A DNA stretch of 51,580 nucleotides from Nitrososphaerota archaeon (GTDB lineage Archaea; Thermoproteota; Nitrososphaeria; PSMU01), in NCBI GenBank assembly GCA_040290255.1, contig PSMU01000008.1, forward strand, positions 1 to 51,580, in the 5' to 3' direction. This document shows, piece after piece, positions 4,773 through 7,881 of this stretch (position 1 is the stretch's first letter; each line of letters starts with the position of its first letter). Under the pieces are notes generated by a model. That model was not told the DNA's origin. It saw only the letters and a list, made by a program, of their open reading frames with translations, and did not search any database. Position numbers and translations under genes: made by a program.

Positions 4773-5854
4773 ATGAGGGAACTAAAGCCGCTGTGGCTCG
4801 AGCGCGAAGCGCTCTGCATCCTCGACCAGAGGGCCCTGCCCCTGAGGAGGCGCATCCTGCGCTGCTCCACGCCGGAGCAGGTGGCCGAGGCGATAAGGAG
4901 CATGGCCGTCAGGGGCGCGCCGGCCCTTGGGATAGCATCGGCATACGCGATGGCGCTCGCGCTGCGGGGCTTCGAGGGAGGTCACGAGGAGGCCGTGAAG
5001 AGGGCCTCGGAGGCAGCCCAGCTGCTCTTGGCCACAAGGCCCACGGCCTATAACATTAGGTGGGCCGTATATAGGGTCCTGAGGAGGATAGAGGAGGCGA
5101 GCGACGACGCCTACGAGGCCGCGCTGGAGGAGGCCAAGGCGATTGAGAGGGAGGACTACGAGGCCTGCAAACGCATGGGGGAGCTGGGCGCACAGCTGCT
5201 CGAGGACGGCGACAGGGTGCTCACCCACTGCAAACGCGCGTAGCGCGGCAGAGCACGGGTGGGCTGGCCACCTCGGGCTACGGCACGGCGCTAGGGGTCA
5301 TCAGGGCCGCTTGGGAGCGGGGCAAGCGCTTGCACGTCTTCGTGACGGAGACGAGGCCCATGCTGCAGGGGGCCAGGCTGACGGCCTATGAGCTACGGCA
5401 GCTCGGAATTCCATATACGCTCCTTTCCGACATGGCCGCGGGCCTGCTGCTGAAGAGGGCAGGCGTAGACAAGGCCATCGTGGGCGGCGACAGGGTGCTT
5501 CCCGATGGCCACCTCTTCAACAAGGTGGGCACCTATGTGCTCGCGCTTCTCTTTAAGGAGCACCGAAGGCCCTTCTTCTGCGCCGTGCCCACCTCGAGCA
5601 TAGATCCCAGGGCCACGATAAGGGATGTAAAGATAGAGGAGAGGAGCCCGCAGGAGGTGCTTAGCATCGGGGGGAGATACATCGCGCCCAGGGATGCCAA
5701 GGTGTACAACCCGGCCTTCGACGTGACACCTCCCCAGCTGATCAGCGCCTACATCACCGAGCGGGGGATCCTTTACCCGCCCTTCGAGGCCTCCCTCGGG
5801 GCGCTAATTGGCACCCCGGAGGGGCCGCCTAGGCCCGCGGGGAGCGGTACGTGA
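4773..5854 (+). CDS. mtnA: S-methyl-5-thioribose-1-phosphate isomerase, join(4773..5233,5254..5854), interrupted by a 20-nt BHB/BHL intron; 353 aa after splicing
   Basis: LDQRALP, MAVRGAPALG, TRPTAYN; spliced junction [49 protein letters not shown], ITERG. Confidence 0.88.
5234..5253 (+). other. Putative archaeal pre-mRNA intron with BHB/BHL motif, ACGCGCGTAGCGCGGCAGAG
   Basis: 4-bp central helix CTGC/GCAG; AAA bulge; 5-bp inner stem CGCGC/GCGCG; AGC(AC) 3' bulge or loop; exon-exon stem GCTCACCC/GGGTGGGC; canonical cuts restore the frame and the HCN motif. Confidence 0.85.
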
Positions 5855-7793: not shown

Positions 7794-7866
7794 GGCCGGG
7801 TGGCGGAGAGGTAGACGCGGCCGCCTGCAGAGCGGCTTTACGAGGGTTCGAATCCCTCCCCGGCCT
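7794..7866 (+). tRNA. tRNA-Cys(GCA), intronless, CCA not encoded
   Basis: Acceptor GGCCGGG/CCCGGCC, anticodon arm GCCGC-CTGCAGA-GCGGC, T-arm GAGGG-TTCGAAT-CCCTC, U discriminator. Confidence 0.95.
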
Positions 7867-7881
7867 CTGGCGCCGCGGCAG

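Follow-up and report, generated by a model that had tools for sequence, protein, structure and literature searches.

A putative 20-nucleotide intron of the bulge-helix-loop type in archaeal mtnA, with inserts at the same site across the Thermoproteota

Contig PSMU01000008.1 of a hot-spring Nitrososphaerota archaeon (NCBI GenBank assembly GCA_040290255.1; GTDB lineage Archaea, Thermoproteota, Nitrososphaeria, PSMU01) was analysed as one stretch of 51,580 nucleotides (nt), positions 1 to 51,580 of the forward strand, which is referred to here as the window. Its mtnA gene is interrupted by 20 nt within the codon that follows the cysteine of the active-site motif. These 20 nt, positions 5234-5253, are very probably a genuine intron of the bulge-helix-bulge (BHB) type located in the coding sequence, and translation of the mtnA mRNA almost certainly requires prior splicing. 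The case is built on the reading frames at the locus, on inserts found at the same nucleotide in other genomes of the phylum, and on paired sequence changes within those inserts that preserve a helix beside the predicted splice sites.

The interrupted mtnA gene

On its profile matches, the gene is that of S-methyl-5-thioribose-1-phosphate isomerase (MtnA/M1Pi), an enzyme with an eIF-2B-like fold. A preliminary description of this DNA had mtnA split into two frames, with the unspliced message stopping at a TAG inside a hairpin, and both translations agree with it. The frame that begins at ATG 4773 runs as far as ...THC, continues for three more codons (K, R, A) and ends at TAG 5241-5243. A frame from 5255 is open up to the stop at 5852-5854, and it opens with the conserved block that lies downstream of the catalytic Cys-Asn in the MtnA family. 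The same description held that removal of exactly 5234-5253 would give a 353-amino-acid (aa) open reading frame (ORF) with a restored MtnA active-site motif. Computed excision bears this out: AA is joined to C as an Asn codon, and the two exons (461 and 601 nt) add up to 1062 nt, or 353 codons plus a stop, in a single frame that contains the motif THCN(T)G. The Cys codon (5229-5231) stands immediately 5′ of the intron, and the HCN motif is complete only once the intron is removed. We take the cysteine of this motif to be the catalytic residue, corresponding to Cys160 of Bacillus subtilis MtnA; a literature search on Cys160/Asp240 gave no paper. The parts of the gene are as follows.

4773..5233, + strand: mtnA exon 1, codons 1-153 (...THC) and the AA of the Asn-154 codon; supported by translation, Pfam IF-2B and NCBIfam MtnA, with a start that agrees with the N-termini of proteins P0133-P0136
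5234..5253, + strand: putative 20-nt intron of the relaxed BHB type (bulge-helix-loop), whose TAG at 5241-5243 is in frame; found in DNA contigs from independent runs and matched by same-site inserts in 46 other genomes
5254..5854, + strand: mtnA exon 2, which supplies the C that completes the Asn codon, then 199 codons and a stop codon (5852-5854); supported by translation, Pfam IF-2B 117-280 and the NCBIfam MtnA models from profile position ~160

The Pfam IF-2B profile is matched at positions 2-115 by the first half and at 117-280 by the second, so that the two halves are contiguous. The NCBIfam model NF004326 (MtnA) is matched at 12-165 and 167-352 of its 358 positions with 143.5 + 228.2 bits (cut-off 271), and TIGR00512 (MtnA) with 125.9 + 224.3 bits (cut-off 279), these totals being a rough sum of two separate scans.

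Frameshifts in metagenome-assembled genomes are often errors, and this prior is all that speaks for an assembly or sequencing artefact. The preliminary description had raised the possibility that DNA data might lack the 20 nt, and they do not. Contigs from the public runs X1, X2, X6 and X7, which belong to up to four studies (X6 and X7 probably are one data set filed twice), span the site without an indel. With the 20 nt intact in contigs of several studies and homologous inserts in 46 other genomes, an artefact is virtually excluded. Phase-variable DNA was likewise rejected, as the run contigs show no indel variants. The strain represented by X6/X7 is ~3% diverged, and none of its 33 listed substitutions in mtnA falls at 5092-5301.

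The collection of 5.8 billion public proteins presents the gene in halves. Relatives of the N-terminal half at 58-71% identity (P0133-P0136) are all fragments of 156-158 aa that end in THCKR plus one residue (A, E or P), the more distant P0137 ends in THCKRLG, and no full-length protein more than 54% identical to the N-terminal half was found in this collection. In a sister lineage, the P0033 cluster consists of five C-terminal ORFs of 176 aa, on contigs of up to 247 kb, and one protein of 353 aa, P0131, from a 1167-nt contig (JGI). When compared with P0136 and P0129, P0131 is exactly an N-terminal fragment, followed by Asn, the conserved block and a C-terminal fragment, and it equals the conceptual spliced product for this sister lineage. 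It aligns without gaps across the junction to the MtnA structures 1t5o, 1t9k, 6a34 and 2yrf, and matches the PDB MtnA chains 1t9k, 6a34 and 2yrf with E values of 1e-80 to 1e-89.

Inserts at the same site across the Thermoproteota

The intron had been presented as a trait of this lineage, which proved too narrow. Inserts of 20-44 nt that split this Asn codon behind its second base occur in 47 genomes, which represent 11 families and two or more classes of the phylum. These counts are lower bounds, since the searches were samples and the search pattern misses His encoded as CAT as well as inserts outside 20-46 nt. The family and class labels used here are anonymous codes; the genome under study (G000) belongs to family f1 and itself carries the insert.

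A class-wide search with the full-length P0131 gave mostly single open frames and a few matches that were split or contained stops (best 150 of 375 matches). Five of these were inspected (G318, G332, G382, G312 and G244); the loci of G312 and G244 end at contig ends, and the partial matches G162 and G233 were left out. In the three matches that were read, the Asn codon is interrupted at this same point, past its second base, by 21, 23 and 28 nt. In an order-level sample of 121 genomes around one of these three carriers (G452, unpublished, was left out), the insert is present in 30 genomes of families f16, f18, f21, f22, f27 and f28. A phylum-level pattern search of 401 genomes matched G000 and 16 of the 400 others, in families f37, f38, f48 and f63 of other classes, and the reversed control pattern gave no match in the same 401 genomes. 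Scans of genome and metagenome contigs for related loci gave, among the matches listed, only relatives of at most 56% identity, none of them informative.

The 47 genomes hold 45 distinct inserts. The length of 26 of these is not a multiple of three, and all 19 that keep the frame contain stop codons. With the insert removed computationally, all 47 genomes regain THCN[AT]G, and in every one of the 45 sequences the insert is preceded by AA and followed by a pyrimidine, which completes AAY, a codon for Asn. Taken together, the frame-breaking lengths, the stops in all in-frame inserts and the restoration of the motif in every genome make sense only if the insert is removed at the RNA level. The downstream half is an open, conserved MtnA frame in all carriers, with E values of 1e-57 to 1e-68 for the split copies.

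A side feature of the inserts (for example those of L205 and L237-L258) concerns their start. In 28 of the 45, a stop directly follows the AAN codon (TGA in 24, TAG in 4), so that the unspliced mRNA would end one codon past Cys, compared with three codons past Cys in G000. This stop may be selected, or it may be a by-product of a stem that starts with U-A/G-C.

Conserved fold and covariation

The letters at 5219-5264, read directly, match the preliminary description element by element, including its stems, bulges, loop and TAG. The elements of the fold in this genome are listed below; the cuts are predicted positions.

5219-5226, + strand: outer (exon-exon) stem, 5′ strand GCTCACCC, 8 bp with 5257-5264; seen in the centroid fold, not conserved
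5228-5231, + strand: central helix, 5′ strand CUGC, in the exon (last base of the His codon and the Cys codon), 4 bp with 5248-5251
5232-5234, + strand: 5′ three-base bulge AAA, with a predicted cut at 5233/5234, the only position that rebuilds the Asn codon
5235..5247, + strand: inner hairpin with a 5-bp stem, CGCGC (5235-5239), loop GUA (5240-5242) and GCGCG (5243-5247)
5248-5251, + strand: central helix, 3′ strand GCAG, in the intron, invariant in 45 of 45 sequences
5252-5254, + strand: 3′ bulge or loop AGC, with a predicted cut at 5253/5254
5257-5264, + strand: outer stem, 3′ strand GGGTGGGC (GGGUGGGC), identified from the sequence and the centroid fold, not conserved

Pairs were counted in the 45 distinct sequences by scripts anchored on the splice sites, and the counts are thus fitted to the proposed structure. 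A MAFFT alignment of four junctions misregistered the inner-stem arm of G000 and was not used for the counts. The central helix, CUGY with GCAG, has standard pairs in 180 of 180 cells; its fourth pair is C-G in 17 sequences and U.G in 28, following the synonymous Cys codons UGC and UGU. Across its first five pairs, the inner helix shows standard pairing in 217 of 225 cells, and each position has 2-6 types of pair, CGCGC/GCGCG in G000 being replaced elsewhere by UAGCC/GGCUA, UGAUC/GAUCA, CAGCU/AGCUG and others. When the 3′ partner is slid by 1-3 bases, only 16-111 of 225 cells pair. Column shuffles reach a mean of 161.5 (standard deviation 4.0) and in 0 of 2000 cases 217, a count that overstates the support and the independence of the sequences, as these are kin. 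Despite this kinship, full double-sided changes can plainly be seen from one family to another. The compensatory changes in relatives that the preliminary description had named as a check are thus found in the inner helix, and the boundaries it gave, with a cut after the second base of the bulge, coincide with the site shared by all 47 genomes.

The bases around the predicted cuts vary within narrow limits. Most of the 45 sequences (36) have AA|A at the 5′ bulge, another 8 have AA|U and 1 has AA|G; the 3′ site is AA|U in 17, AU|U in 14, AG|U in 10, AG|C in 3 and AU|C in 1. The 5′ three-base bulge lies between two helices in 45 of 45, and the 3′ site is a three-base position inside a larger loop. 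Judged from these sequences, the conserved motif is the relaxed HBh′ or bulge-helix-loop form, not the strict hBHBh′ form.

Several points weigh against an EndA-processed intron in mtnA, EndA being the archaeal tRNA-splicing endonuclease. The minimum free energy of the 76 nt at 5205-5280 is -31.6 kcal/mol compared with -30.8 for shuffles (z = -0.24); as this is no better than the shuffles, the significance of the fold comes from the relatives and not from thermodynamics. The outer stem appears only in the centroid fold. All eight of its pairs are present in G000, as had been described, but in G000 alone among the 45 sequences, and across the relatives it is not conserved, with 171 of 360 cells paired against 121-186 in slid controls. 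The 3′ splice site does not fall in a canonical three-base bulge between two helices, and in G000 it is part of a 1 x 5 internal loop. Some EndA types tolerate relaxed motifs, and cutting at the 3′ site of mtnA would rely on such tolerance. The full-length P0131, possibly the product of an assembled spliced transcript, may instead come from an intron-less allele. Within the species, synonymous changes in the X6 strain amount to 11 of 25 substitutions in the C-terminal half against 7.5 expected (P = 0.08) and to 4 of 8 in the N-terminal half against 1.9 expected (P = 0.09), which backs selection in the spliced frame only weakly, though in the expected direction.

Translational bypass could carry the message across the insert with no cutting of RNA, if the ribosome left at the Cys/Lys codon by the hairpin stop and landed 20 nt downstream. 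The stop right after AAN in 28 of the 45 inserts, followed by a hairpin, would suit such an event, and the arrangement is superficially like that reportedly used for bypass in phage T4 gene 60. However, the take-off and landing codons do not match, the gap varies in length from 20 to 44 nt, and bypass does not need the pairing of exon CUGY with intron GCAG, yet this is kept in 180 of 180 cells. Bypass would also give Lys, whereas the motif has N in every uninterrupted homologue inspected, and AA together with the pyrimidine beyond the insert (45 of 45) gives Asn only by joining of RNA. All this makes bypass extremely unlikely.

A broken gene, which would be either a pseudogene that arose when a small palindrome was inserted or a pair of separately translated half-proteins, is hardly credible, even though mtnA is annotated as two ORFs and the public protein collection has only halves for this lineage. 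In all 47 genomes, from 11 families, the gene is interrupted at one and the same nucleotide, both halves are conserved and open, and the helices covary. If translated separately, the C-terminal half would have its first start at TTG 5330 and lose the conserved GYGTALG block, and the N-terminal half would end in K, not in the invariant N. Nor does G000 have another close copy of MtnA, the second-best match being only 35% identical over 87 residues.

Splicing machinery and proposed pathway

The genome encodes two separate ORFs with the EndA domain PF01974, in the regions C4:317254-317496 and C3:57092-57346. Their frames are open over 184 and 189 aa, the domain scores are 98.4 and 69.5 bits, and the two apparently fit a two-subunit alpha-beta EndA, and an RtcB that scores 566 bits. 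Of 43 tRNA predictions made by aragorn in G000, 24 carry intron calls, four of which are implausibly long. The cbf5 gene of this genome is a single, uninterrupted open frame. In the window, the sole RNA gene found by Rfam or aragorn is an uninterrupted tRNA-Cys(GCA) at 7794-7867 (+ strand).

In the proposed pathway, the exon sequence CUGC would pair with the intron sequence GCAG in the precursor mRNA to form the 4-bp central helix. The 5′ splice site would be set by the AAA bulge together with the 5-bp inner hairpin, and the 3′ site would lie in the loop after GCAG. EndA, apparently of the alpha-beta type, would cut each bulge behind its second base, and RtcB would ligate the exons, whereby the Asn codon (AA + C) of THCN is rebuilt and the second half brought into frame. 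Unspliced mRNA would yield only a truncated product ending three codons past Cys. Cleavage, ligation and the assignment of both steps to EndA and RtcB are what we infer from the sequences. A cut between the second and third residues of the bulge, which the preliminary description had applied as the EndA rule, is the same as that stated for cbf5 in the accessible text of Yokobori 2009 (PMC2738675).

Processing by something other than EndA and RtcB, such as another endonuclease and ligase or a self-cleaving element, could be argued from the 3′ site, which departs from the canonical bulge, and from the outer helix, which is not conserved. Against this, the conserved 4-bp helix, the three-base bulge, the flanking helix and a cut after the second bulge base are the defining properties of an EndA substrate, and G000 encodes both EndA and RtcB. 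In addition, 20 nt are too short for any known self-splicing intron, and Rfam matches in the window are confined to tRNA. Such processing is very unlikely. Group I and group II introns were rejected because the insert is too short, and an intein because it is too short and contains stops.

Other candidate introns in the genome

The preliminary description suggested that the lineage may carry more micro-introns, and a genome-wide BHB scan supports this modestly, for one further gene, glyA, with the next 10 candidates being ordinary gene junctions. To qualify in the scan of G000, a candidate needed a 4-bp helix without mismatch, no fewer than 4 bp in the inner stem and, on either side, an open frame of 60 codons or more. 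It returned 9608 raw candidates, mostly junctions of adjacent genes, for which ranking by coding potential was useless. When candidates were ranked by helix quality, with the list limited to introns of at most 45 nt, mtnA came first and glyA second of 57. Introns that fall outside any of these limits could be missed.

In glyA, the gene for serine hydroxymethyltransferase (SHMT), 18 nt at 389864-389881 of contig C3 (minus strand) form a BHB-like insert that contains a TAG in frame. The SHMT profile match at C3:388841-390016 spans one TAG, and removal of the insert restores a conserved SHMT motif. Both interrupted genes of G000 belong to methionine/S-adenosylmethionine (SAM)/one-carbon metabolism.

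All of the next 10 candidates have Pfam matches on both halves that identify ordinary neighbouring genes (10 of 10). At L263 (contig C3, 28819-30067), the Cytidylate_kin2 profile aligns with the right-hand ORF only from position 11 onward, which falls on the second residue of the ORF; this is probably an overlapping neighbour gene and not an intron, with the start of the kinase inside the proposed 'intron'.

Evolution of the mtnA intron

A tree of C-terminal halves was built from 31 loci with the intron and 30 without it, 9 of 39 intron-less loci having been dropped as the site was not found by the pattern. The presence of the intron changes 5 times on this tree compared with 20.6 times for shuffled labels, and is thus strongly clustered. 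The carriers do not form one clade, and well-supported branches force at least three changes. Within family f22, the mtnA of G443 (L259, G443:C75:1102-2142) is intron-less, reads CAC TGC AAT GCA... at the site and is nested among eight intron-bearing copies, a pattern that resembles precise loss of the intron. The branch that leads to G000 is long and stands next to the intron-less family f3; its placement is therefore tentative, and its intron may be inherited or separately acquired, with one gain or several on the tree.

A broader scenario can be sketched, although we regard it as unlikely. In this scenario the mtnA intron would be ancient, predating the split of the Thermoproteota classes, and would form together with the glyA intron a retained set at the catalytic motifs of methionine/SAM/one-carbon enzymes, whose output would be gated by EndA/RtcB capacity. 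It would then be an archaeal counterpart of regulated splicing of the HAC1/XBP1 type, and neither a neutral relic nor a recently mobile element. The gating part of this scenario supposes that an unspliced message yields only a truncated product, because a stop directly follows AAN in 28 of the 45 inserts.

Implications and comparison with known systems

If the mtnA intron is what it appears to be, EndA and RtcB would splice mRNAs as a normal element of gene expression in the Thermoproteota, and not as an oddity confined to one gene. It would also bear on genome annotation. Standard annotation miscalls the split mtnA, of which the public protein collection has only the two halves for this lineage. 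For this reason, methionine salvage and, on the same reasoning, SHMT are wrongly missing from pathway reconstructions for these archaea. The 45 distinct natural inserts offer a ready series of substrates with which to explore the relaxed motifs that an alpha-beta EndA accepts, and a clean case on whether such introns are inherited, lost (as in G443) or mobile.

A literature search, covering papers without their supplements, gave no paper on an intron in mtnA or on further BHB introns in coding sequences, which agrees with the statement in the preliminary description that no intron was known in a methionine-salvage enzyme. We place the mtnA insert with high confidence among the introns of the known tRNA type; beside cbf5, mtnA would be the second archaeal coding sequence in the literature searched that needs tRNA-type splicing, and a metabolic one. 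The BHB intron in the cbf5 (pseudouridine synthase) precursor mRNA of Crenarchaeota was reportedly described by Watanabe in 2002 and Yoshinari in 2006. According to the accessible text of Yokobori 2009 (PMC2738675), splicing had been confirmed for no gene but cbf5, with introns in other protein genes only predicted. The accessible text of Schwarz 2020 (PMC7714728) names the cbf5 mRNA intron as the sole additional BHB intron reported besides its own case in a 5′ untranslated region (UTR).

The closest parallel is cbf5 itself. As far as the available portions of the sources go, both genes have a short coding-sequence intron in the codon beside a catalytic residue, with an 'unconventional' BHB whose cuts lie, for mtnA as a prediction, between the second and third bulge residues. 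Both occur in hosts with a hetero-oligomeric EndA, apparently so in the case of mtnA, have a patchy distribution with gains or losses, and are routinely taken for frameshifts. They differ in that cbf5 is an RNA-modification enzyme and mtnA a metabolic enzyme, in their host groups, and in that splicing of cbf5 was shown by cDNA whereas that of mtnA is deduced from sequence. In Haloferax volcanii, the BHB intron of HVO_1309 resides in an mRNA that EndA cuts, as is predicted for the mtnA insert; for HVO_1309, the accessible text of Schwarz 2020 (PMC7714728) reports confirmation both in vivo and in vitro. The HVO_1309 intron, in contrast, is located in the 5′ UTR, where the reading frame is independent of it, and its host is a euryarchaeon with a different EndA type.

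The BHB introns of archaeal tRNAs, in which G000 is rich, share with the mtnA insert the geometry of the motif, apart from the relaxed 3′ site of the latter, the size range of tens of nucleotides and the presumed enzymes. The substrate in mtnA is an mRNA, however, and the exon strand of its central helix is fixed by the His-Cys codons and not by tRNA structure.

A more distant analogue is the eukaryotic cytoplasmic splicing of HAC1/XBP1 mRNA, a proven stress switch that is carried out by IRE1 and tRNA ligase or RtcB with no spliceosome. Like the pathway proposed for mtnA, it involves a small, frame-changing mRNA intron, an endonuclease that cuts within stem-loops and a tRNA ligase that joins the exons. 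The endonuclease (IRE1) and the motif are different, and regulation, which is proven for HAC1/XBP1, is for mtnA only proposed.

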